DNA from: a virus
Lineage: Duplodnaviria; Heunggongvirae; Uroviricota; Caudoviricetes
Length of the DNA stretch: 12,360 nucleotides
Direction: 5' to 3' (one strand)
Virus record (IMG/VR): IMGVR_UViG_2802429245_000001
Coordinates: 1 to 12,360 of that record
How positions within the stretch are numbered: the stretch's first letter is position 1; each line of letters opens with the position of its first letter. Below, piece after piece: positions 1-12,360 of the stretch. A program made the position numbers and the translations under genes. A model generated the notes under the pieces. The model ran no database searches. It saw only the letters and a list, made by a program, of their open reading frames with translations, and was not told where the DNA came from.

Positions 1-115
1 TACCCAACTCCAATCAATCAATGCGTTTTAATCGACAATACAAATAATATAAGACGCGTGAGATGTCGCCCGGTGATTCGCTTTCTGGTGTTTTTTCGAT
101 CTTTCCGGGTTTTAA

Positions 116-433
116 ATTCCTATCGATGAACGCCTGGAAAAACTGGAAGAAAACGTCGCGCAGTTCAGCGCGAAGAATGCCCCGAAAGATACCGGTGATA
201 ACAAGCCGGAAGGCAGCACCGGCGATCAGGGACAGGACAACGCAGAACAGAACAACAAGGACGACAAAACCTTCACGCTGACCACCGGGCAGGGCGAAAA
301 GCTGTTCTCCACAGTGAACGCCATCGCGGAGAAGGTTACCAGTATGGAAACCGCATTTGCTGAACTCAGCAAGGACGCCACGAAGCTGCCGGGCAACAAT
401 CCGGCCGGTGGCGAAACTTTTAACCTGGTGTAA
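116..433 (+). pseudogene. Capsid scaffolding protein (P2 gpO-like), C-terminal ~105 codons only; 5'-truncated with no canonical in-frame start
   Basis: The frame ending at TAA 431-433 translates to ...ERLEKLEENVAQFSAK...VTSMETAFAELSKDATKLPGNNPAGGETFNLV*, which resembles the C-terminal scaffolding region of gpO-type proteins as I recall them. In-frame stops lie at 74-76 and 113-115, and the first in-frame GTG/ATG are at 314/344. It sits immediately upstream of the capsid gene, as in P2 (O then N). Confidence 0.5.
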
Positions 434-447
434 CCGGAGAGAACGCA

Positions 448-1461
448 ATGAACATGACACCAGAAGCACAAAAGCTGGTTAATCAGTACATCAGCGAACT
501 GCAAAAAACATTCAGTGACTGCGGGAAATCAAGCGATCGTTTCTTTTCGCTGACCGAGCCACGCAGTATTGCCCTGCGTAAAGCCCTGCTGGAAAGCACA
601 GAGTTTCTGAGTTTCATCACCTGCATGGACGTTCCGCACCCGCAGGGGCAGGTCGTCACCGTGGGCGAATCCACGCTGCGCACCGGTCGCGTGAAAAGCG
701 GTCGTTTCGCTAAAGGTTCGGGCATCAAAGGCAACGAATTTAAACTCGTTGAAACTGATTCCTGCTGCGTGATCACCTGGGAACAACTCGCCATCTGGGC
801 GAATGCCGGCAGCCCGCAGGAATTTTTCAACCTGATGAACTCCGCCGCCGTCACCAACTTTGCGCTGGACATGCTGCGCATTGGCTTTAACGGTAAAGAG
901 GCTGCTGAAAACTCTGACCCGGAAAGTCACCCGAACGGCGAAGACGTCAACATCGGCTGGCATGAAATCGCCAAAAAGTGGGGAGAACAGCCCGGCAATA
1001 CCTCCCGTATTCTGACGGACGCCGTTACCCTGGGCGAAGGCGGTGATTATGTCGGCCTTGATGCCATGGCCTCAGACCTGATCCGCACTTATATCCCGGC
1101 GCAATATCACAACGATCCTCGCCTTACTGTGCTGGTTGGCGCAGACCTTGTGGCTGCTGAAGAACTACGCCTCTACAACAAAGAGGACAAGCCCACCGAA
1201 AAAGTGGCCGCACAGTTGCTGACGAAGAACATCGCAGGCCGCAAGGCCATCATTCCGCCGTTTATGCCGGGTAAGCGTATGGTGGTGACCATGCTGCCAA
1301 ACCTGCAGATCCTGACGCTGAAGGATTCCCGCCGTCGTAAAGCGGAAGATGTGGGCGATCGCAAACAGTTCGAAAACTCATACTGGCGTTACGAGGGGTA
1401 CGCCCTGGGCGATCCGGATTTATATGCTGCCGTGGATGAGTCTGCGGTCACTATCGCCTGA
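448..1461 (+). CDS. Major capsid protein, P2 gpN family
   Basis: 337-aa ORF with SD GGAGA 7 nt upstream of ATG 448. Size, position after the scaffold remnant and before the terminase endonuclease subunit, and the sequence match the P2 gpN-type major capsid protein from recall. Confidence 0.88.
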   Translation: MNMTPEAQKLVNQYISELQKTFSDCGKSSDRFFSLTEPRSIALRKALLESTEFLSFITCMDVPHPQGQVVTVGESTLRTGRVKSGRFAKGSGIKGNEFKLVETDSCCVITWEQLAIWANAGSPQEFFNLMNSAAVTNFALDMLRIGFNGKEAAENSDPESHPNGEDVNIGWHEIAKKWGEQPGNTSRILTDAVTLGEGGDYVGLDAMASDLIRTYIPAQYHNDPRLTVLVGADLVAAEELRLYNKEDKPTEKVAAQLLTKNIAGRKAIIPPFMPGKRMVVTMLPNLQILTLKDSRRRKAEDVGDRKQFENSYWRYEGYALGDPDLYAAVDESAVTIA

Positions 1462-1478
1462 TAAACGGAGCGCACGGT

Positions 1479-2189
1479 ATGCCAACGCCAATGCAGCGAC
1501 AACGTGCCCGACAGATGGATGAGCGCCGTGCGGCGCTCATGACCACAACGGACGGACGCGCCATCAGCACAGAGAGTCAGCACATTAAACTGCTGGCACT
1601 GGATAACGACATCAGACAACTGCACAACATGGAGCTGCTGTCTGACAAGCTGGAATTCAAGCGGAGCACGCTGCTGCCCCGCTGGCTGCCACACGCACAG
1701 GCTTATCTGGAGGGGGAACGCGTCTATCAGAATCCCATTCTGGTGTACTGCATCATCTGGCTGTTCGATACCGGGCAGTTTGAGATGGCGCTGCGGTGGA
1801 CTGACATTGCCATTGAGCAGGGGCAAAAGACGCCGGAGAACTTCAAAAGCGAGCTGCCAACGTTTGTGGCCCATTTCATTCTTGAATGGGCAGAAACCGA
1901 AGCTGAACGCGGGAACAGTATCGCGCCATATTTTCAGCAGGTGTTTGAAAAAATCCGTGACAAATGGCGCGTGAATGAACGCCTTGCTGCCCGCTACTGG
2001 CGCTTTGCAGGCGTCCTGCTGCTGCGCGGCGATGACGGTAAACCGCTGGCCAGTGCAATTAACGATCCGGAGAGACTGCAACAGGCCGACCAGTGTCTGG
2101 AACGGGCTGCCTGGCTGCATCCCAAAATTCAGGTGAAAACCCTGCGCCAGCGCATTGCCGCAAGACTGCGCGCGTTGCAGGGCACGTAA
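1479..2189 (+). CDS. Terminase endonuclease (small) subunit, P2 gpM-like
   Basis: 236-aa ORF with SD ACGGAG 8 nt upstream of ATG 1479, 17 nt after the capsid stop. Size and synteny (N-M-L) are as in P2-like phages. Confidence 0.8.
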   Translation: MPTPMQRQRARQMDERRAALMTTTDGRAISTESQHIKLLALDNDIRQLHNMELLSDKLEFKRSTLLPRWLPHAQAYLEGERVYQNPILVYCIIWLFDTGQFEMALRWTDIAIEQGQKTPENFKSELPTFVAHFILEWAETEAERGNSIAPYFQQVFEKIRDKWRVNERLAARYWRFAGVLLLRGDDGKPLASAINDPERLQQADQCLERAAWLHPKIQVKTLRQRIAARLRALQGT

Positions 2190-2287
2190 ACGACTCCCAA
2201 CAACCGGGCGGGCGCGGTGGAGGTGTGCCGGCAAAAGCCATCAGCACACTGCGGAAACCGGTCAGCCCGCCTTTCCCCGGAGTGAGC

Positions 2288-2782
2288 ATGTTTGACGGGA
2301 AAAGCATTCACTATCAGCAGGCCATTATTCAGAACGATGGATTCTGGCCGGATATTGATGCCGGCGATTTTGAAAAGAGCCGCAGCATCCCCGCCGTCAC
2401 GTCACACGAAACGGTGCTGACGGCGCTGCTTTGCGCGGTAACAGAGATTAACACTGAACTGGCTGCACGCCGTGAATACTGGCAGGAACAGGGCTACATC
2501 CGGGCCGCTGATATTCCGGGTTACACCGTGTTGCAACCAGAGCCGCGCAATACAGGCGCACAACCTGAACGGATGCAGAATCACATTACAGCACTGTACA
2601 CCAAGGCCGTGTATGCACGCGCAAAGGCCGATCTTTTGCCGGAATCTGCCAGCGTGGGGCGGCGCGAGGCGCAACCCTCATCAGAAGCCAGCGAGAGTCG
2701 CCGGACGTTGCTGGCTGAAGCGGCCATGGCGGTGCGGGCGCTGCTGGGCCGACCACGTGCATCCATCGCGCTGATTGATTAA
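2288..2782 (+). CDS. Head completion/stabilization protein, P2 gpL-like
   Basis: ATG 2288 is preceded by GGAG at 2279-2282. The 164-aa product contains FWPDIDAGDF, resembling the gpL-family FxPDIDP region from recall. The track ORF starts at 2093, but that extension overlaps the gpM gene and lacks an RBS. An in-frame GTG at 2225 is an alternative start. Confidence 0.75.
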   Translation: MFDGKSIHYQQAIIQNDGFWPDIDAGDFEKSRSIPAVTSHETVLTALLCAVTEINTELAARREYWQEQGYIRAADIPGYTVLQPEPRNTGAQPERMQNHITALYTKAVYARAKADLLPESASVGRREAQPSSEASESRRTLLAEAAMAVRALLGRPRASIALID

Positions 2783-2791
2783 GGAAATGGT

Positions 2792-3265
2792 ATGACGCAA
2801 CTCGCCAGCCTGACGGCATTCATTGAAAACAATCTGCCGGCACGCGCACGCATTCCGTTCACCAGTGACATGGATGACATCACGCTCGTTCCGTTTACGA
2901 AGTCGCTGGGGCACGGGCAGTTATGTACGCAGGTTCGAAAATATACGGCTTTTCTGCGATGGGACGCATGGCCCTACCGCAAACTGAATCCGGATTTGGT
3001 GTTTTCTCTGGTTGAAGCCTGGCTGGCAGACAACGGCGGCGACCTGCGCCAGCGCCTGGCACCGGATGCGCCAGCCGTTGACGTCGAAGTGGATGATGAA
3101 AATGAAGTGGCATGGCTGGAAATCAGTCTGCCGCTGGTTGATCCCATCACCCTGGTTGAGGACGAAAACGGCCCCATCCCCAGAGGCGGGAAACGTTACC
3201 AGCTGGAAAAGCCTGAAATCTGGGTGGCTCAGGCGCATCAGCTTCACTGTCAGGTGATGCCATGA
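2792..3265 (+). CDS. Putative tail completion protein (P2 gpR-like)
   Basis: 157-aa ORF with SD AAGGA upstream of ATG 2792. Size and position (after gpL, immediately before the S-like gene, stop overlapping the next start as ATGA) fit a gpR-type tail completion protein. The assignment rests mostly on synteny. Confidence 0.45.
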   Translation: MTQLASLTAFIENNLPARARIPFTSDMDDITLVPFTKSLGHGQLCTQVRKYTAFLRWDAWPYRKLNPDLVFSLVEAWLADNGGDLRQRLAPDAPAVDVEVDDENEVAWLEISLPLVDPITLVEDENGPIPRGGKRYQLEKPEIWVAQAHQLHCQVMP

Positions 3266-3975
3266 CGCGCCCCGTGATTAACGAGTCACAACTCCGGCAG
3301 GTTCGTCGCGCCATCAGAGAGGCAGAACTTCCGCCGGCAAAGGCCAGAAAGCTGTTGGTTCGCATTGCGAAATACGGCCTGATACCGGCTGCACGACGCA
3401 ATGTGAAAGCACAGCGAACACCGGAGGGGGCAGCCTGGGCACCACGAAAAAGACCGGATAAAGCCAGCGGCAGGTATAAAAACAAAATGCTGCTGGGACT
3501 GCCGAAACTGCTGGCCATCAGGGTTGATGGCAGCGGGAAAAGTGTCCGCCTTTTCTTCAAAAAAGGGGATTACAACACCGGCTCTCATGGTGGGGCGGTT
3601 GCGTGGGTGCAACAGCACGGCGCAACCATCAAAGGCCGCGCCACAAAACGCCGGGACAGCGAAGCCATGCGCACCCGTCCCGCCACACGACGGCAGGCAG
3701 AACGCCTTCTTTCTCTGGGCTTTCGCGCCCCCGTCGGCGCGGTCAGCAAAAAAACCGGACGCAGGGGATACAGAAAACCTTCCCTGAAATGGATTATGGA
3801 AAACATGAGTATGGCGCAGGCCGGGCTGGTGATCAGCATTCTGAAAGGCGAGCAGAAAAAACGTGTATGGGAAATCAAAATTCCCTCCCGCGCATTTCTG
3901 GGAGCCAGTAACGCTGAATTTGCCCGCATTCTGGAGGCGCAATTGCGCAGCCTGCATTACGGCGGCACGAGATAA
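3262..3975 (+). CDS. Phage virion morphogenesis / tail completion protein (gpS-like), extended basic form
   Basis: 237-aa ORF whose start overlaps the upstream stop (ATGA at 3262-3265). Central VAWVQQHGATIKG and C-terminal IPSRAFLG resemble conserved motifs of the virion morphogenesis family from recall. The protein is very Arg/Lys-rich. Confidence 0.55.
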   Translation: MTRPVINESQLRQVRRAIREAELPPAKARKLLVRIAKYGLIPAARRNVKAQRTPEGAAWAPRKRPDKASGRYKNKMLLGLPKLLAIRVDGSGKSVRLFFKKGDYNTGSHGGAVAWVQQHGATIKGRATKRRDSEAMRTRPATRRQAERLLSLGFRAPVGAVSKKTGRRGYRKPSLKWIMENMSMAQAGLVISILKGEQKKRVWEIKIPSRAFLGASNAEFARILEAQLRSLHYGGTR

Positions 3976-3994
3976 CAAAATCAGGAGACAAATC

Positions 3995-5143
3995 ATGACC
4001 TGGCCATCTGTCACGATCGAACAGTACAACACATTCAGCAGTTCACCGGACGGCGTGGAAAATACACTGCTGTTTGTGGGCAATGCACAAAACAACAAAG
4101 GTAAGGTTCTGCCGGTTAACGCTAACAGCGATCTGGATGAACTGCTGGGAACGAACGCCAGCCCGCTGAAGAATTTCCTTCAGTCCGCACTGACCAATGC
4201 CGGGCAGAACGCCTTTTTCTATGTTGCCGTTCTGCCGGAAGCAGGCAGGGGCAAAGAAGCGACGCCAGCCTGCCAGGCATGGCAGAACGCCATACTGGCG
4301 GCTCAGGAAACTGTTTCAGTTGAAGGCGTGGTGATCACCGAACCGGTCAGCACGAAGGATGACATCAACGCCATACAGGCGTTACGTCAGACCATCATCA
4401 ATAAATATCAGCGCCGCATCTGGTTCATTCTGACCATTGCCGCCAATAACTGCAGCAAAACCTGGGCAGATTACGTTGCTGAACTGACCACGCTACAGGA
4501 AGGCATCGCCGCCCCGCAAATCATGCTGGTTCCGGAAATTTTTGGCTTTGAACCGGGCGTTCTTGCCGGCCGTCTGTGTAACAGCGCCGTCACCATTGCT
4601 GACAGTCCGGCGCGTGTGGCAACCGGGGGCCTGTCCGCACTGAAAACCACTGAACGCCCGAAGGACAGCGCAGGGCAGGCAATTGATCTCGCCACCCTGC
4701 AGGCACTGGCAACCGCCCGCTACAGCGTGCCCATGTGGTATGCCGACTATGACGGCCTTTACTGGGCTGACGGTGTAACACTTGAAGTGGAAGGTGGGGA
4801 CTACAACGTCATTGAGCATGTCCGCATTGCTGATAAGGTGGCGCGCCGCGTGCGGCTGATAGCCATCCCCAAGATTGCAGATCGCTCGCTGAACAGCACG
4901 CCGGGTAGCATTGCCGCACATGAAACGCTGTTTGCCCGCCCACTGCGTGCCATGGCGAAATCCACGCAAATTAACGGCATCACATTTCCGGGAGAAGTGA
5001 AATCGCCCCGGAAAGGCGACGTGGTTATCACCTGGCAGGACGAAAAGACGGTCAGCATCAGCATTGTCGTCCGCCCTTACGCCTGCCCTAAAACCATCAA
5101 AGTGGGCATTCAGCTGGATAAATCTCTGGAGGAAAACGCATGA
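3995..5143 (+). CDS. Putative contractile tail sheath protein (DUF2586-like family, non-P2 type)
   Basis: 382-aa product with SD AGGAG 7 nt upstream of ATG 3995. It sits in the canonical myovirus order sheath - tube - chaperone - tape measure. The track ORF start at 3863 overlaps the previous gene and is rejected. No clear similarity to P2 FI from recall. Confidence 0.55.
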   Translation: MTWPSVTIEQYNTFSSSPDGVENTLLFVGNAQNNKGKVLPVNANSDLDELLGTNASPLKNFLQSALTNAGQNAFFYVAVLPEAGRGKEATPACQAWQNAILAAQETVSVEGVVITEPVSTKDDINAIQALRQTIINKYQRRIWFILTIAANNCSKTWADYVAELTTLQEGIAAPQIMLVPEIFGFEPGVLAGRLCNSAVTIADSPARVATGGLSALKTTERPKDSAGQAIDLATLQALATARYSVPMWYADYDGLYWADGVTLEVEGGDYNVIEHVRIADKVARRVRLIAIPKIADRSLNSTPGSIAAHETLFARPLRAMAKSTQINGITFPGEVKSPRKGDVVITWQDEKTVSISIVVRPYACPKTIKVGIQLDKSLEENA

Positions 5144-5595
5144 CGACCCGCATTAACGGCATGGCGTTTGACACTTTTATCGGTGGAACGGATATCCATG
5201 TGAAAAGCATCTCACTGGACATCAGCGATGAAAGCGCCGTTGCCAAAACCCGTGGCATCCCTGACGGCAAACTGCGCGGCCCTGTCAGTGCCGAAGGTGA
5301 AATCGAAATGAGTACCCGCAGCTTTAACCAGCTCGGGGAAGTGGCTGCTCAGGCGGGATCGTGGCGTGACCTGCCGCCAATGGATTTTGTGTTTTACGCC
5401 AATACGGGAACCGAAGAAATCCGCGTTGAAGCCTTCGGTTGTGAGCTGATGCTTTCCGGCCTGTTAAGCATTGACACCGAGAGCGCAGATCTGACCACGC
5501 ACAAAATCAAGTACGTGGTGGCAAGCCCTGACTTTGTGCGTATCAACGGCGTGCCCGTTCTCTCAGAGAACGACGTGCGCGGACTGATGGGGTGA
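5140..5595 (+). CDS. Putative tail tube protein (DUF2597-like)
   Basis: 151-aa ORF whose start overlaps the sheath stop (ATGA at 5140-5143), with GGAGGA upstream. Size and position between sheath and the chaperone/tape measure genes fit a tube protein. Confidence 0.5.
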   Translation: MTTRINGMAFDTFIGGTDIHVKSISLDISDESAVAKTRGIPDGKLRGPVSAEGEIEMSTRSFNQLGEVAAQAGSWRDLPPMDFVFYANTGTEEIRVEAFGCELMLSGLLSIDTESADLTTHKIKYVVASPDFVRINGVPVLSENDVRGLMG

Positions 5596-5598
5596 ACC

Positions 5599-5895
5599 AT
5601 GCAGGAGCATGAGCGCACCATTATCACTCTGGGCATTCTGGGCGGAATCGCTGCCGCAAGTCGGGTGCTGGCTGGCGCAGAGCCGATTACGTTGCGGTTG
5701 TTTGTGGGCCGAACCCTGCTGGGGAGCGCGCTGGGTGTTTCTGCCGCTGCCCTGCTGGTTCGCTACCCGAATCTTGACCCACTGGCCATTGCCGGCGCAG
5801 GCACCGCAATGGGCGTTGCCGGTTACCAGATTGTTGAAATCTTCCTGCGTCATATGCGCCGGAAGCTGGACGAGAAAGAGAACAAAGAGGAGTAA
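5599..5895 (+). CDS. Holin (3 predicted transmembrane segments, charged C-terminus)
   Basis: 98 aa with three hydrophobic stretches (TIITLGILGGIAAASRVLAG, LRLFVGRTLLGSALGVSAAALLV, LAIAGAGTAMGVAGYQIVEIFL) and a highly charged tail (RHMRRKLDEKENKEE). SD GGGGTGA is upstream of ATG 5599 and the gene lies just upstream of the endolysin. Confidence 0.65.
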   Translation: MQEHERTIITLGILGGIAAASRVLAGAEPITLRLFVGRTLLGSALGVSAAALLVRYPNLDPLAIAGAGTAMGVAGYQIVEIFLRHMRRKLDEKENKEE

Positions 5896-5900
5896 CCGCA

Positions 5901-6008
5901 ATGTTGTCCCGCAGGGAACAAAAAGCCGCTGCCATTGCCTGGAAAATTATCCGGGCACTGTGGTACTGGCTGCGCAAACCTCAGCAACCTCATAAGGAGC
6001 AAAAATGA
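5901..6008 (+). CDS. Small basic amphipathic peptide (35 aa), hypothetical; between holin and endolysin
   Basis: ATG 5901 is preceded by a strong SD, AGAGGAG, with an 8-nt spacer. Translation is MLSRREQKAAAIAWKIIRALWYWLRKPQQPHKEQK. The stop TGA 6006-6008 overlaps the endolysin start ATG 6005-6007. It is below the size cutoff of the ORF track. Confidence 0.35.
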   Translation: MLSRREQKAAAIAWKIIRALWYWLRKPQQPHKEQK

Positions 6009-6346
6009 AACTCTCCGATAAGCAACAACAATTTACCGTCATGATCGGAAAACTCATCCAGTTTGCCCATCAGCGCGGTTATGGCCTGACGTTCGGTGAG
6101 GCGTACCGCACGCCAGAACAGGCAAAACTCAACGCACAAAAGGGATCCGGCATTGCCAACAGCCTGCACTGCCAGCGGCTGGCCGTGGATTTTAATCTGT
6201 TTATTAACGGTGAATATCAGACCCGCACAGAGGCCTACCGCGAGCTGGGCGAGTACTGGGAATCCCTTGGTGGCGCATGGGGCGGTCGTTTTAAAAACCG
6301 CCCGGATGGCAATCATTTCAGCCTTGAGCACGACGGCGTGCGCTGA
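6005..6346 (+). CDS. Endolysin, peptidase M15 (LAS-type zinc metallopeptidase, probable L-alanyl-D-glutamate endopeptidase)
   Basis: 113 aa with a perfect SD AAGGAG 4 nt upstream of ATG 6005. Metal-binding motifs SLHCQRLAVDF (H-x6-D) and DGNHFSLEHDG resemble T5-type M15 endolysins from recall. No signal peptide or SAR segment. Confidence 0.82.
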   Translation: MKLSDKQQQFTVMIGKLIQFAHQRGYGLTFGEAYRTPEQAKLNAQKGSGIANSLHCQRLAVDFNLFINGEYQTRTEAYRELGEYWESLGGAWGGRFKNRPDGNHFSLEHDGVR

Positions 6347-6353
6347 TTTTACG

Positions 6354-6383
6354 CTTAATAAGCCTTCCTGCAGGCTTATTAAG
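6354..6383 (+). terminator. Stem-loop (11-12 bp stem) immediately after the endolysin stop; possible attenuator or terminator without a strong U-tract
   Basis: CTTAATAAGCC (6354-6364) pairs with GGCTTATTAAG (6373-6383), and the loop region contains the palindrome CCTGCAGG. It is followed by CCCTCTTATTCTTGAC rather than a clean T-run. Confidence 0.3.
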
Positions 6384-6410
6384 CCCTCTTATTCTTGACT
6401 TTAAAAGGAA

Positions 6411-6704
6411 ATGATGATGAACGATAAAAACACCCAGACTACCGCAGAGAACACCATCACTTTACAGGTCGGCGAGCATGAACTGACGTTTATCCCGACC
6501 GTAAAAGCCTACAACGACCTGCAGAACGACTTCATGCCGGATAACAAAATCGCGCCGCTGAAAAACTACCTGCGCCGTATCGTGATTAAAGAGCACCGCG
6601 ATCTGCTGAACCAGCTGCTGGAAAAACCAGGAATGCCGGCCAGCCTGGCAACAGCCGTGAATAACGAGTTTGTGCCGGAAGTGGAAATCACCGTAAAAAA
6701 ATAA
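6411..6704 (+). CDS. Tail assembly chaperone (P2 gpE-like / lambda gpG analogue)
   Basis: 97-aa ORF directly upstream of the tape measure gene, ending ...EITVKK* at a run of A residues. Three tandem ATGs lie at 6411/6414/6417 and the AAAGGA SD favours the second or third. Confidence 0.7.
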   Translation: MMMNDKNTQTTAENTITLQVGEHELTFIPTVKAYNDLQNDFMPDNKIAPLKNYLRRIVIKEHRDLLNQLLEKPGMPASLATAVNNEFVPEVEITVKK

Positions 6705-6892
6705 AAAGCCATCTGGGAGCCATTGATCGCAATGACCTTACCCGGATGCTGATTCTGCGCCGCCACTGGCTGCCCGGCGAGGATGACTCGCCGCAGTCAC
6801 TGGCTGCCGCCGTCTGGCTGGATAACCACTACTGGGAAAATATGAGCATCGCCGTCAATAACGGCATTATCCGTGCTTTTAAGGGATCGTAA
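6411..6892 (+). CDS. Tail assembly chaperone, -1 frameshift-extended isoform (gpE+E' / G-T analogue), predicted ~160 aa
   Basis: The -1 frame is open from the slippery site to TAA 6890-6892, which overlaps the tape measure ATG (TAATG). The extension reads IKSHLGAIDRNDLTRMLILRRHWLPGEDDSPQSLAAAVWLDNHYWENMSIAVNNGIIRAFKGS. Recoding at this position is conserved in the chaperones of long-tailed phages. Confidence 0.55.
6695..6701 (+). other. Candidate -1 programmed ribosomal frameshift slippery heptamer A_AAA_AAA, followed immediately by the zero-frame stop TAA
   Basis: Zero-frame codons are GTA AAA AAA TAA. The heptamer AAAAAAA at 6695-6701 allows both lysyl-tRNAs to re-pair in the -1 frame, after which the reading frame continues ATA AAA AGC and onward. 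Confidence 0.5.
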
Positions 6893-9066
6893 TGTCACAA
6901 CAGCGCCTTGAATTACTTCTTGAACTGACAGACCGCCTGACAAGGCCGTTGCGTGCAGCCGGGCGACAGGTTCAGGGATTTGCTGCAACAAGTCGGGGAG
7001 CCTTTCGGGACATTGCTACCGGAGGCGCTGCGCTCTGGGGAGTGGGTGCAGCCATTCAGGGGGCACTGATGCCAGCCATTGAAATGGACAGGGCGCTCGG
7101 TGAGGTGAAATCACTGGGCGTCGCAGAGTCCGGATTGCGTAAACTCAGCCGCGCCGCCGTTGATTTCACTATGGAATACGGCGGGGCTGCGCAGGATTTT
7201 GTGCGTGCGTCATACGACATCCAGTCAGCCATTGCCGGGTTAACTGACGATGAGCTGTCCCGCTTCACCACCGCATCAGCAACGGTGGCAGCAGCAACCA
7301 AATCCAGCAGCCAGACCATTACCGCCTACATGGGCACCATGTACGGCATCTTTAAAGACCAGGCTGATGCCATGGGAAAAAGCAAATGGGTGGAGCAGGT
7401 CGCCGGGCAAACCGCCACCGCCGTGCAAATGTTTAAAACAACCGGCGATAACATGTCAGCGGCGTTCACCACGCTGGGTGCCAGTGCAAAAGCGGCCGGT
7501 ATTGATGCGGCTGAACAGTTCGCCGTGCTGGGACAACTACAGGCCACCATGAGTGGCAGCGAGGCAGGGACGAAATACAAAGCATTTCTTGCCGCAGTAG
7601 GCAGCGCCCAGAAAAAGCTGGGGCTTAATTTCGTGAATAAAGACGGCACGATGAAAAGTGTTGTCGAGATCATGAAACTTATCAGGGGCAAATTTGGTGA
7701 TCTGTCAAAAGTGGCTGATTCCGATTTGCTGAAAAGCGCCTTTGGCTCCGATGAAGCTGTGGCCATGATTAAATTACTCAATGCGGACATTGGCGGACTT
7801 GAAAAGAATATCGCCACGCTGGGCAATATCAAAGGTATGGATAAGGCTGTCGAAATGGCACAAGCCATGGCCGATCCATGGGAACAGGCCGCTGCAATTA
7901 TTAACGGCATTCGCATCGAAATTGGCACGCAGTTGTTGCCTGTTCTGTACCCGTTTATCCAGAAAAGCAACGAAGGCGGCAAATCCTTTGTTGCCTGGTT
8001 ACGTCTGTATCCAAACATCACGCGCGCAATTGGTTTACTGGCGGGGACTTTTCTTAGCCTCGCAACCGTTGGCGCTCTCAGCAATATCATCATGGGACTG
8101 TTCAGCTTTGTAACAAAAGGGCTGATTGCCCCCGTAACAGGCTTAATAAAGCTTCTCAGGTTAAGCGCATTGCGAAATACACTGGCCGCTGCTGCAACAG
8201 GGGCTTATGCCGCTGCACAACAATATCTGAACAGGGTCATGCTGGTTTCAATGCTGACAGGACGCGGCTTTCTTACCACCATGCTGATGATGAGCGGGCC
8301 CATTCTGCTTATTGGTGCAGCCATTGCAGCAGTTGTTGCTCTTGTCTGGAAATTCTGGGAACCCATCAAAGCGTTTTTCAGCGGATTCATTCAGGGGTTC
8401 AGCGATGCATGGAAGACTATTTCACTTGGCTCTCCCATTCTGGCCGATATCGGCGCTGTTTTTGGTTTTGTATGGGATGCCATCAAAACAGCATTTAACT
8501 GGCTGATGAATTTACTCACACCGGTAGAACTGACGGGCGAAGCGTTCGGACGCGCCAGCGATGCCGGTGCGTCTTTTGGCCGTATCGTTGCCACAGCAAT
8601 CAACTGGATCCTGACGCCCACTGAAATCATGCTCGGACTGTTATCAAAAGTGTGGCAGGCCCTGCTCATTATTCTGCAGGGGTATAAGGATATCTGGAAC
8701 AGCCTGGATATTACTCACCCCCTAGATTCACTGAAAAATCTGGCTTCCGGGATCCTGGCTATTTTCAGCAACCTCTGGGAACTGGTGAAACAGTCCTTCA
8801 GTGATTCATGGGGCTGGATTGTGGACAAACTCAACATGATCCCCGGCGTTAACATCGGCACATCAGAAAGCACAGGAAGTGGCGAAGGCTCCGTATTAAC
8901 CGGCGGTAAAGCCATCAGCGCGGGGCCGGGTGGCATTGCGGCAGAAATGCAGAACAACAGCGAAAACCAGACCACCATCGACAACTCCCGTCGTGTGGTC
9001 AACGTCAATGTGCAGGATCCATCCCCTGCCCGTCTTAACGAGTGGATGGAGCTGCATGCATACTGA
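6892..9066 (+). CDS. Tail tape measure protein
   Basis: 724 aa with an Ala-rich, helical N-terminal half, central hydrophobic segments and C-terminal aromatic periodicity typical of tape measure proteins. It lies immediately downstream of the frameshifting chaperone. By the roughly 0.15 nm per residue rule this predicts a tail on the order of 100 nm (inference). Confidence 0.88.
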   Translation: MSQQRLELLLELTDRLTRPLRAAGRQVQGFAATSRGAFRDIATGGAALWGVGAAIQGALMPAIEMDRALGEVKSLGVAESGLRKLSRAAVDFTMEYGGAAQDFVRASYDIQSAIAGLTDDELSRFTTASATVAAATKSSSQTITAYMGTMYGIFKDQADAMGKSKWVEQVAGQTATAVQMFKTTGDNMSAAFTTLGASAKAAGIDAAEQFAVLGQLQATMSGSEAGTKYKAFLAAVGSAQKKLGLNFVNKDGTMKSVVEIMKLIRGKFGDLSKVADSDLLKSAFGSDEAVAMIKLLNADIGGLEKNIATLGNIKGMDKAVEMAQAMADPWEQAAAIINGIRIEIGTQLLPVLYPFIQKSNEGGKSFVAWLRLYPNITRAIGLLAGTFLSLATVGALSNIIMGLFSFVTKGLIAPVTGLIKLLRLSALRNTLAAAATGAYAAAQQYLNRVMLVSMLTGRGFLTTMLMMSGPILLIGAAIAAVVALVWKFWEPIKAFFSGFIQGFSDAWKTISLGSPILADIGAVFGFVWDAIKTAFNWLMNLLTPVELTGEAFGRASDAGASFGRIVATAINWILTPTEIMLGLLSKVWQALLIILQGYKDIWNSLDITHPLDSLKNLASGILAIFSNLWELVKQSFSDSWGWIVDKLNMIPGVNIGTSESTGSGEGSVLTGGKAISAGPGGIAAEMQNNSENQTTIDNSRRVVNVNVQDPSPARLNEWMELHAY

Positions 9067-9406
9067 TAAAACGCTTTACATTGATTTGCTCATCACCGGC
9101 CGCAATCTCACGCTGAACAGCGCCAGTGAGCCGGTGTTATGCAACAACAGGGAAAGTATTGCCCAGGACTGCCAGCACGCCATCATTGAGAGCGGACTGG
9201 CAACGCGCCTGCTGGCTGAAAAAAGCCCGACGCTTCGTGCCGACATCATGATGCAGATGACACTGCTGATTGAAGATGATGAGCGTATTACGCCTGGCAC
9301 GGTCAGTGTGACAGAAGAAACCCCGCTTTCTGGTCGCCTGCTGATTAGCGCCCACACCGAAGATTTTTTTGAACCCCTGACTTTTACGGTATCTCTTGAT
9401 GATTAA
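9056..9406 (+). CDS. Small baseplate-associated protein (DUF2590-like; possibly gpW/gp25-like wedge protein)
   Basis: 116 aa with ATG 9056 preceded by GGAG at 9048-9051. It overlaps the tape measure 3' end by 11 nt and precedes baseplate J. Size and position fit a gpW/gp25-like protein, but sequence similarity is weak from recall. Confidence 0.45.
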   Translation: MHTDKTLYIDLLITGRNLTLNSASEPVLCNNRESIAQDCQHAIIESGLATRLLAEKSPTLRADIMMQMTLLIEDDERITPGTVSVTEETPLSGRLLISAHTEDFFEPLTFTVSLDD

Positions 9407-10583
9407 CGGCAAACCTACTGCAGATTACGAGCGCATTCTGGCTGATAATGGCATGCCGGTAACCGAAGAACAGGCTCGCGCTGAATTTGAAGCCATTGTC
9501 AAAGACGAAGGGCTTATCACCAACACTTCCCGCATGTCGCCGTTCTGGCGACTGATTACAGCTATCACCACAAAACCCGTGATGTGGCTGAAAGATGCGC
9601 TGGTTAATGTGGTGATGAAAAACCTGTTTCTGGCTGATGCCAGCGGTGTATTCGTTGATGTTTTTGCCTGGGCGGTAAACCTGCAACGCAAGGCCGCCAC
9701 GCACGCAGCCGGCGAGATTCGTTTCACCAAAAACGACATTGATCGCGCAGTTACCGTGTCGGCCGGTACGCAGATTCAGACAGAACGCATTAACGGCGTG
9801 ATTTATACGCTGACCGTTGTCAGGGATACCGTTATTCCGGCAGGAACACTCAGCATGAACATCGATGTTTCTGCGGAACAGGCCGGAGCCGGCTTTAACC
9901 TTGCGCCGGGATATTACCGCATCCTTCCGGTGGCGATTGATGGTATTGCCGGCGTTGAGAACGATGAAAACTGGCTGACCACACCGGGTGCCAACGAAGA
10001 AAGCGATGACGAGTTGCGTGATCGTGTTCGCAATCAGTTTAATCTTGCCGGCGCTTATCACACCGATGCAGTTTACCGGGGATTAATTGCCGGCGTTGCC
10101 GGCATCAGTGCCGACCGCATCTATTTTCTGCATGACGCACCACGCGGCCCCGGCACAGCAAATGCTTACATTCTGCTGGATACCGGCATCGCATCCGAAC
10201 CGTTCGTTGATGCAGTAAACGCATTCATTAACGATGAAGGTCATCACGGACACGGTGATGATCTGCGCTGTTTTTCCATGCCTGAAACACGCCACACCCT
10301 GACCGTGACACTCTGGTTATATGCAACGCTGAACCTCAGCGATGAGGAAATTCAGACGTTATTGCGCAATGTGGAAAATCTGGTTCGCTGTGCATTTCGA
10401 GAAAACAGCGATTATGACGTTCAGAAAACATGGCCGTATAGCCGTTTCAGCATGTCCAGACTGGGCGAAGAGATCCACCAGGTATTTCCACAGGTGGAGT
10501 CGGTTACATTTTCTCTTCCGGATATTCTCAGTGATCTGGCTGTTCCTCGTCTGGAATCCCTTACTGTGGAGGTGAGCGCGTGA
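9399..10583 (+). CDS. Baseplate J / gp47 family protein
   Basis: About 394 aa. The start is either ATG 9399 or TTG 9396, overlapping the previous gene's stop at 9404-9406. Size and position are those of a baseplate J-like protein (P2 gpJ / Mu gp47), followed by an I-like gene and the tail fibre. Confidence 0.8.
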   Translation: MINGKPTADYERILADNGMPVTEEQARAEFEAIVKDEGLITNTSRMSPFWRLITAITTKPVMWLKDALVNVVMKNLFLADASGVFVDVFAWAVNLQRKAATHAAGEIRFTKNDIDRAVTVSAGTQIQTERINGVIYTLTVVRDTVIPAGTLSMNIDVSAEQAGAGFNLAPGYYRILPVAIDGIAGVENDENWLTTPGANEESDDELRDRVRNQFNLAGAYHTDAVYRGLIAGVAGISADRIYFLHDAPRGPGTANAYILLDTGIASEPFVDAVNAFINDEGHHGHGDDLRCFSMPETRHTLTVTLWLYATLNLSDEEIQTLLRNVENLVRCAFRENSDYDVQKTWPYSRFSMSRLGEEIHQVFPQVESVTFSLPDILSDLAVPRLESLTVEVSA

Positions 10584-11215
10584 AACTTCCGGAGATCCCT
10601 GAATTCCCGCTCCCCACCTGGATGAATAAAGGCGAGCCGTTAACGCTGGCACATTCATCGCATCGCTACTGGGAAAAGGTATACAGCTGGCTGACGTGGC
10701 CACTACAGCAGATTGATGTCGACACCTGCGCAGAACCTTTACTTAACCTGCTGGCTTATCAGCGCAATATCACCCGATTTAAAGGAGAGCCGGTTTCGTT
10801 ATTTCGCTTAAGGGTGAAACACGCGTTTATTAACGCTCAGGACTCTGGCGAACGCGCCGGCTTCGAACGCATCTTTAAGCGTCTTGGCGTGGGAGACGTT
10901 AAAACACTGGAACGGCAACTGCAGCATGACTGGGACGTTATTTTACTGCGCATTAATGACACCCAGTTAAGTGAAAACAACGCGCTGATGATGCAGCTCG
11001 TGCGCCAGTATGGTCGTACCTGCAGGCGCTATTTCTTTCAGGTAATCAATACAACCACTGCCCGGCTGACAGCCGGCACATTTGATGGCCATTACAGGTA
11101 TCACACAGCAGAAGCAACGGTGAGAAAGGACACCATCTGGTTAACCGCTTCGCTACAGGCAGGACATTACGGCCTGTCCGTGGAGCATTACACATTACAG
11201 GCAGACGAAGCATGA
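10580..11215 (+). CDS. Baseplate/tail protein (P2 gpI-like or Mu gp48/YmfQ-like)
   Basis: 211 aa with a GTG start at 10580 overlapping the baseplate J stop (GTGA), preceded by a strong SD GGAGGTGA. Position between baseplate J and the tail fibre fits this family. Confidence 0.55.
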   Translation: MKLPEIPEFPLPTWMNKGEPLTLAHSSHRYWEKVYSWLTWPLQQIDVDTCAEPLLNLLAYQRNITRFKGEPVSLFRLRVKHAFINAQDSGERAGFERIFKRLGVGDVKTLERQLQHDWDVILLRINDTQLSENNALMMQLVRQYGRTCRRYFFQVINTTTARLTAGTFDGHYRYHTAEATVRKDTIWLTASLQAGHYGLSVEHYTLQADEA

Positions 11216-12360
11216 GCACGATTATTACTGAACAGTACGAACACTGGTGTGCGAATCAGCTCATCAGTGGAAAACCTGCGCGCCCGGATACATTTGTTTT
11301 TGCATATATTCCGGGACAGGATGAATCCGCAGAGATCCCCCGCGATGAGATACTCCCTGATGAATCCATGATTCAGTATCGTGCGCCGGTCACCCAGTAC
11401 GGCCTCCTGTCGCCGAACGCGACCGCGTTTTCCATCATTCTGGACACGACAGTCGGCGACTTCGAATACAACTGGATCGGTCTGCTGAACGAAGAAAGCG
11501 GCGTGCTCTGCATGATTGCGCACACACCTCGTCAGCAAAAAATTAAAACAGCGAACGGCGTGCAGGGAAACAACCTGATCCGCACATTTTCCATGGAGTT
11601 TGACGGCGCAGCCGCAGCAATGCATATCGATGTCAGTGCTGATGTCTGGCAGATTGATTTCACTGCACGCCTTGCAGGAATGGATGAGGCCCGCCGGCTG
11701 CTGGCGTTTGATCACTACGGTGAAGCCGCTTTTCTGGGGGATGGTTTTCAGGTCAGCTATCAGGATGGTACCGCTACTGTTGCCGCCGGCGTGGGTTATG
11801 TGGGAGGTCTGCGCGTCAGTCTGCGCGAACCTTACAGCCTGCCGGCTGCGGTCGGGGATACCATTTGGATTGATGCAAGCTGGCAGGGATTTGTTACCGG
11901 CGAATGGAATACCGTTTTTACGTTCTGCGCCCGCCAGGAACATGCGTCCTATACAGACGGTAACGGCTTCCGACACTTTGTCGCGCCACTTGCGAAACTG
12001 ACATCAGAAGGCTTACAGGATTTACGTCCACAGACGCCCGATGAAGAACAAAGCAATGCACTGGCAGAGCACGAAAAATCCCGCCGTCATCCGGACGCAA
12101 CACTGAAGGAGAAAGGCTTTGCGCAGTACAGCAACTCCACCGACAGCGACGCAGAAGACCGCGCCGCCACATCAAAGGCAGTAAAAGCCGCAATGGATAA
12201 GGCAAAAGGCGCTGTTGAGCGTGGCGGCGACACCATGACCGGGGAACTGAAAATCCGTGGTGTTAATGCGCTGAGGATTTTCAACGAAGCCTTTGGTCTG
12301 ATTTTTCGTCGTTCGGAAGAGTGCCTGCACCTTATCCCTACCAGTGAAGGTCAGGGCGAG
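11212..12360 (+). CDS. Tail fibre protein, N-terminal part (3'-truncated by the window end)
   Basis: ATG 11212 overlaps the upstream stop (ATGA). My manual translation shows no stop through 12360 (383 codons). It contains the conserved tail-fibre motif AEHEKSRRHPDATLKEKGFAQYSNSTDSDAEDRAATSKAVKAAMD, similar to P2 gpH / lambdoid Stf, followed by GDTMTGEL. Confidence 0.82.
   Translation, partial: MSTIITEQYEHWCANQLISGKPARPDTFVFAYIPGQDESAEIPRDEILPDESMIQYRAPVTQYGLLSPNATAFSIILDTTVGDFEYNWIGLLNEESGVLCMIAHTPRQQKIKTANGVQGNNLIRTFSMEFDGAAAAMHIDVSADVWQIDFTARLAGMDEARRLLAFDHYGEAAFLGDGFQVSYQDGTATVAAGVGYVGGLRVSLREPYSLPAAVGDTIWIDASWQGFVTGEWNTVFTFCARQEHASYTDGNGFRHFVAPLAKLTSEGLQDLRPQTPDEEQSNALAEHEKSRRHPDATLKEKGFAQYSNSTDSDAEDRAATSKAVKAAMDKAKGAVERGGDTMTGELKIRGVNALRIFNEAFGLIFRRSEECLHLIPTSEGQGE

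Follow-up and report, generated by a model that had tools for sequence, protein, structure and literature searches.

The window, meaning the whole 12,360-bp stretch of DNA analysed here, is an entire draft contig (PTSN01000045.1 of assembly GCA_002965865.1, with identity confirmed over window positions 1–11461). It opens with a short stretch assigned by sequence to the end of an insertion sequence (IS), which is followed directly by the 3′ part of a P2-type capsid scaffolding gene, gpO, and then by the intact major capsid gene. At its far end the contig stops inside a tail-fibre gene. The features to which we refer are as follows.

1–127, plus strand: right (oriIS-side) terminus of an IS91-family element, assigned from 131/131 identity to CP056643.1.
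128–131, plus strand: GAAC target tetranucleotide (5′-GTTC on the opposite strand), which abuts the oriIS end and pre-exists in gpO.
128–433, plus strand: 3′ remnant of GPO, codons 196–296 and the stop codon, a pseudogene fragment, by identity to WP_097728285.1.
448–1461, plus strand: major capsid gene of the P2 family (Pfam PF05125), intact and the first complete gene past the junction.
14–448, minus strand: antisense ORF of 144 aa spanning the IS/gpO junction, a public gene call with no Pfam match.
12234–12360, plus strand: the other contig end, lying within an incomplete tail-fibre gene that runs off the contig.

Forward frame 2 contains stops at 74–76 (TGA) and 113–115 (TAA), and is then open from 116 to a stop at 431–433. 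The earliest conventional initiation codons in this open frame are GTG at 314 and ATG at 344, with no ATG, GTG or TTG ahead of them, so that the first such codon of the remnant comes no earlier than its codon 67. Upstream of 314 the frame offers only the rare codons ATT (116), ATC (122) and CTG (134 and 143). A preliminary description of this DNA had reported the two stops and the missing ATG/GTG, together with an AT-rich region at 1–115, and all of these observations are confirmed (G+C of 0.40 for 1–115 vs 0.54 for the window). A search for promoter-like sites in positions 1–500 found none.

The preliminary description read 116–433 as the C-terminal part of a gpO-type protein, and this reading holds. 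From its fifth residue (ERLEKLEEN...FNLV), the translated frame is identical to residues 196–296 of the 296-aa GPO encoded by a sister prophage, and it has no usable start. The four codons before this point, IPID (116–127), are foreign and not phage sequence. The discontinuity that had been proposed at 115/116 is therefore real, but it sits at 127/128: in 41 of 41 E. coli genomes with a related prophage, the alignment to the window starts only at 127/128, and comparison with intact related prophages places the break between GPO codons 195 and 196 of 296. The antisense ORF at 14–448 is almost certainly a spurious reverse-strand shadow of the gpO remnant and the IS end. An exact look-up nevertheless gives it a use, as its protein is found on this contig only; the IS/gpO junction that it crosses is thus private to this strain, and the ORF serves as a unique tag for it. 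A 30-mer across 127/128 has no match in a species-representative genome collection, so the source assembly is not among its members.

The sister prophage lies inside a 313-kb contig of assembly GCA_002965845.1 and provides the uninterrupted allele. The 12,062 bases at window positions 128–12189 align to it without a single mismatch or gap, and the capsid gene at 448–1461 is 100% identical at the DNA level. The sister encodes an intact 296-aa GPO (WP_097728285.1), with genes for the large terminase and the portal upstream of it. Pfam PF05929 covers residues 7–252 of the intact protein. The remnant alone has no Pfam or NCBIfam match, PF05929 included. Because only residues 196–296 are kept and the N-terminal protease domain is absent, what the window contains is part of a gene and not a member of the GPO family in its own right. 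Our literature search found no paper naming GCA_002965865.1 or GCA_002965845.1.

The intact allele resembles gpO of P2, a scaffold with an N-terminal serine protease (PF05929), in being a 296-aa PF05929 protein. The arrangement around it is also that of P2, with the portal and large terminase genes preceding GPO on the opposite strand, divergent from O-N-M-L, in the sister and in the E. coli relatives. It differs in sequence, as the sister GPO is only ~33% identical to P2-type proteins over the N-terminal 136 residues, and the window differs further in retaining just residues 196–296, without a start codon. In the relatives, the capsid gene follows one that encodes a GPO family capsid scaffolding protein of 293–298 aa. 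The nearest GPO proteins of sequenced phages, from Vibrio and Pasteurella phages, share 33–39% identity and are all full-length; many of the more distant GPO alignments cover only residues 1–136, or extend up to ~210.

Two observations could have overturned the claim that gpO is truncated here, namely a short independent scaffold ORF in relatives or a protease domain upstream in the same frame. The first is found in none of the relatives, all of which encode full-length GPO, and the second is found in no frame; the truncation therefore stands. When all three forward frames of 1–127 are compared with GPO, none shows any likeness to it. A frameshift or sequencing error hiding an upstream protease domain is rejected, as 1–127 is not GPO-like and its DNA is 100% IS.

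The preliminary description had found that 1–115 reads as nonsense in all three forward frames. The sequence instead identifies 1–127 as a defined part of a mobile element of the IS91 family, namely its right (oriIS) end. Matches to it occur on over 1,200 plasmids of E. coli and Shigella, many of which contain it repeatedly, and among these plasmid matches only one is perfect: window positions 1–131 are 131/131 identical to E. coli plasmid pRHBSTW-00300_2 (CP056643.1). There, the matching stretch lies 62 bases downstream of a transposase ORF that scores 261 bits against NCBIfam NF033538, 'IS91 family transposase' (cut-off 125), and matches Pfam Y2_Tnp (PF04986, 1.3e-34) and Zn_Tnp_IS91 (PF14319, 7.8e-13). 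This ORF is preceded by a 121-aa ORF (3406–3771 of locus L009, the CP056643.1 region), as in IS91, which carries orf121 and tnpA (PMC13181058). The orf121 product of this copy is intact, and its exact sequence occurs on 102 contigs across Enterobacterales.

Setting the bounds of the element from matches of the CP056643.1 region to other copies gives 1,810 bp (L009 3318–5127), starting CGAGTAGG... and ending ...TTCCTATCGAT, close to the ~1,830 bp of IS91. Both this copy and an ordinary 1,828-bp IS91 copy (L010) begin with CGAG, equivalent to 5′-CTCG on the other strand. The two ends of IS91 are distinct, terIS (5′-CTCG) and oriIS, and the target, 5′-CTTG or 5′-GTTC, lies adjacent to oriIS and is not duplicated upon insertion (PMC13181058). 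The window shows two features of the family, homology to the oriIS end and an abutting GAAC (5′-GTTC), one of the two IS91 targets. An alignment of four independent IS copies with the window shows that all end ...TTCCTATCGAT and continue with GAAC. Other IS91-family right ends are 73–87% identical to the window end, and all share ...TTTTAAATTCCTATCGAT.

The element is nonetheless a sequence variant of IS91, an HUH/Y2 rolling-circle element of enterobacterial plasmids. The CP056643.1 copy is ~91% identical to the ordinary copy over the first 1,672 bp, and identity falls to 73–87% in the right-end region. Only the terminus lies within the window, and the reference copy that matches it fully has a tnpA gene (L009 3677–4939) with an indel-induced frameshift ~14 codons in, relative to L010; the protein table of the plasmid leaves out pseudogenes and does not list this gene. 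With tnpA frameshifted in the only reference copy whose right end is 100% identical, this IS91 variant may not be active or autonomous. In the strain studied here, the transposase would lie upstream of 1–127, off the contig, reading on the plus strand. The two imperfect subterminal palindromes described for the IS91 oriIS gain no support from this end: a repeat finder returned no inverted repeats of at least 7 bases in 1–140, single-strand DNA folds are not more stable than those of shuffled sequences (z = +1.4 to +1.6), and only a 5-bp CCCGG/CCGGG stem is seen.

Members of this family are known for their association with virulence determinants. Two examples come from ETEC plasmids, where sta1, encoding heat-stable enterotoxin (L002 4001–4550), and the CS6 fimbrial operon genes cssB, cssC and cssD (L003 3191–8129) each have a related IS91-like right end immediately upstream. 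Those ends adjoin truncated IS91-family transposase genes.

At the position of the break, the uninterrupted gpO of the sister reads ...AAAACCGGC to the left (ending ...ACCGGC) and GAACGCCTGG to the right, so that the same GAAC is already present. The pre-existing target, together with the oriIS end that abuts it, therefore indicates a genuine insertion. We consider it highly probable that gpO of a P2-type prophage received an IS91-family insertion sequence whose oriIS end lies at GAAC and which splits the gene between codons 195 and 196. The inserted element would be ~1.8 kb long, carrying orf121 and an HUH/Y2 transposase and moving by rolling-circle transposition. In a simple insertion, the gpO 5′ part, ending ...AACAAAACCGGC, would be joined to the IS left end, CGAGTAGGCAGCC..., without target duplication. 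Three readings had been offered for the truncation: a boundary left by deletion or recombination, a defective or domesticated prophage, and an insertion that separated the scaffold gene from its 5′ part. The last is borne out by the IS91 end at GAAC inside gpO; positions 1–127 are no deletion scar. The event is very recent, since the remaining prophage is identical (0/12,062) to the intact sister copy.

The position of the junction at the very edge of the contig probably stems from the assembly. Here, the assembler would have stopped in the repeated IS, leaving a contig that holds the downstream half of the interrupted gene and an IS terminus. The contig includes just the last 127 bases of the IS, a length that is also typical of the largest de Bruijn k-mer, and an assembly at k = 127 may explain this edge. 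The opposite edge is of a similar kind: the tail-fibre gene that begins at 11212 is cut at codon 383 of 608, and 12234–12360 is a shared prophage tail-fibre segment of which a complete E. coli genome can contain as many as 6 copies. Both contig ends are thus probably repeat-induced breaks of a short-read assembly.

A contig break within this IS end is a clear sign that the strain carries it more than once. The shared repeat stops at 127 rather than 131, which suggests that the first base after the other IS copy or copies is not G, for example at the alternative CAAG target. The preliminary description had supposed that the protease domain, and perhaps the portal and large terminase genes, are missing. 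This is unsupported: the window is the entire contig and starts inside a repeated element, and absence of these genes from the genome cannot be deduced from it. The 5′ half of gpO, the terminase and the portal likely lie just beyond the IS on another contig. More generally, where a gene seems truncated at a distance of roughly one k-mer length or less from the end of a contig, the cause to assume is an assembly break at a repeat and not a deletion.

An insertion at this point would be expected to inactivate the gene. No full-length GPO would be made, as the 3′ remnant has no start codon and stands behind the in-frame TAA of the IS, and the prophage would then be unable to assemble or mature capsids. 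The 1.8-kb insert would also lie between the late promoter and N-M-L, and may be polar on those genes. The earlier label 'defective' is accordingly a reasonable functional inference from a split gpO whose 3′ part lacks a start codon. The companion label, 'domesticated', finds no support, as the rest of the 12 kb is base-for-base identical to the intact sister prophage and shows no sign of selection or decay.

Among other explanations, an IS91-associated deletion or rearrangement fares best, but is unlikely. Here, recombination between IS copies, during the insertion or later, would have removed or relocated the gpO 5′ half, the terminase, the portal and perhaps more, and the prophage would truly be a remnant starting at the IS. 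The additional IS-end copies in the strain would supply substrates for such recombination, and the window contains no sequence from beyond the IS end. We also looked for 17 predicted fusions of GPO residues 1–195 to the IS left end (covering several boundary offsets, two left-end variants and truncations of the kind that short k-mers would produce), and all were absent from an exact-match protein collection that includes the gene calls of this assembly. This failed look-up is weak evidence, however, as a hit would require the start to be called exactly, the left end to match exactly, and a gene to be called on what may be a tiny contig. Contig counts for exact upstream and downstream proteins (GPA 4, ParM 3, Ogr 2, GPO 2 and gpM 4) disagree with a second tally, of 7 contigs for gpM, and carry no weight for either reading. 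Against a deletion, the zero divergence from the intact sister speaks for one event in the very recent past, and among events of this type simple insertion is the most common.

One-ended transposition, in which the element passed terIS (CGAGTAGG) and brought adjacent donor DNA such as plasmid cargo into gpO, appears improbable. The insert would then exceed the IS in length, and foreign genes would separate the gpO 5′ part from the IS. The IS91 family does this in 1–10% of events, more commonly without Orf121 (PMC13181058), so that it is a minority outcome of transposition. It would also explain the missing simple fusion product, and the related IS91-like ends that adjoin sta1 and the CS6 fimbrial genes give it some precedent. 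The zero divergence from the intact copy leads us to favour simple insertion over both one-ended transposition and a secondary deletion. That one-ended transposition delivered cargo from a plasmid to the P2-type late operon, such as virulence or resistance genes like those that neighbour related IS91-like ends, is, in our estimation, even less probable; if true, the cargo would sit behind the phage late promoter.

It is very hard to reconcile the data with a short ORF acting as a functional stand-alone scaffold, as a domesticated capsid module or one resembling that of a satellite might have, with expression driven by the IS end or beginning at a non-canonical start. The frame does stay open from position 116, and the break at 195/196 falls past the aligned region of the protease family, leaving a remnant that roughly corresponds to the C-terminal scaffolding part. 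Yet the frame has no ATG, GTG or TTG before codon 67 and lies behind the in-frame TAA at 113–115; there is no promoter-like site in 1–500; and none of the related prophages or phages encodes a short independent scaffold. The junction moreover occurs on one contig only, and the remnant has zero divergence from the intact allele and no sign of selection. With neither a start codon nor a precedent among relatives, a stand-alone short scaffold gene is rejected. An assembly artefact, in which a chimeric junction conceals a gpO that is actually intact in the strain, is suggested by the location of the junction, right where a short-read contig ends, and is scarcely credible: a random chimera would not reproduce a complete oriIS terminus at a pre-existing GAAC, and the same contig is reported for two samples.

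The prophage that received the insertion belongs to a lineage that is poorly characterised (window positions 448–12360). Related prophages occur in 41 of 5,426 complete E. coli genomes at 95–98% identity, and the first 1,500 bases of the window have no megablast match in a 50,697-record phage collection. The head module is P2-type, comprising portal, terminase, GPO, capsid, gpM and gpL, and is accompanied by a gpA-type replication endonuclease. The P2-type order of the late region is found in the sister and in the relatives; the window itself shows only N-M-L and the downstream genes. The prophage also carries ParM/StbA-type partition genes, and some of the relatives (L001, L004 and L007) add an Rrf2-family regulator. 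The tail region comes directly after the head genes and includes DUF2586, HP1 Orf24-like, tape measure and baseplate J genes. Two small ORFs before the tape-measure gene, Phage_TAC_10 (6417–6704, 95 aa) and DUF6890 (6746–6892, 48 aa), occupy the position of a tail assembly chaperone pair. In many phages, the two members of this pair are joined by a programmed −1 frameshift.

An insertion of an IS91-family element in gpO is an event of an already known kind, an insertion sequence in an essential prophage gene. It is alike in form to other prophages of E. coli and Shigella that an IS has rendered cryptic or defective, with a single IS in an essential morphogenesis gene of a prophage that is otherwise complete; nothing notable sets it apart from these, and the event here is demonstrably recent. 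Its biological weight is accordingly small: this is another IS knockout of an essential prophage gene, caught essentially at time zero. The terminus ...TTCCTATCGAT abutting GAAC offers a quick diagnostic of IS91-family ends. For the prophage, the pair of isolates, one with an intact and one with an IS-interrupted gpO and otherwise identical, would serve as a clean natural control for the role of this poorly characterised GPO and of this prophage lineage.
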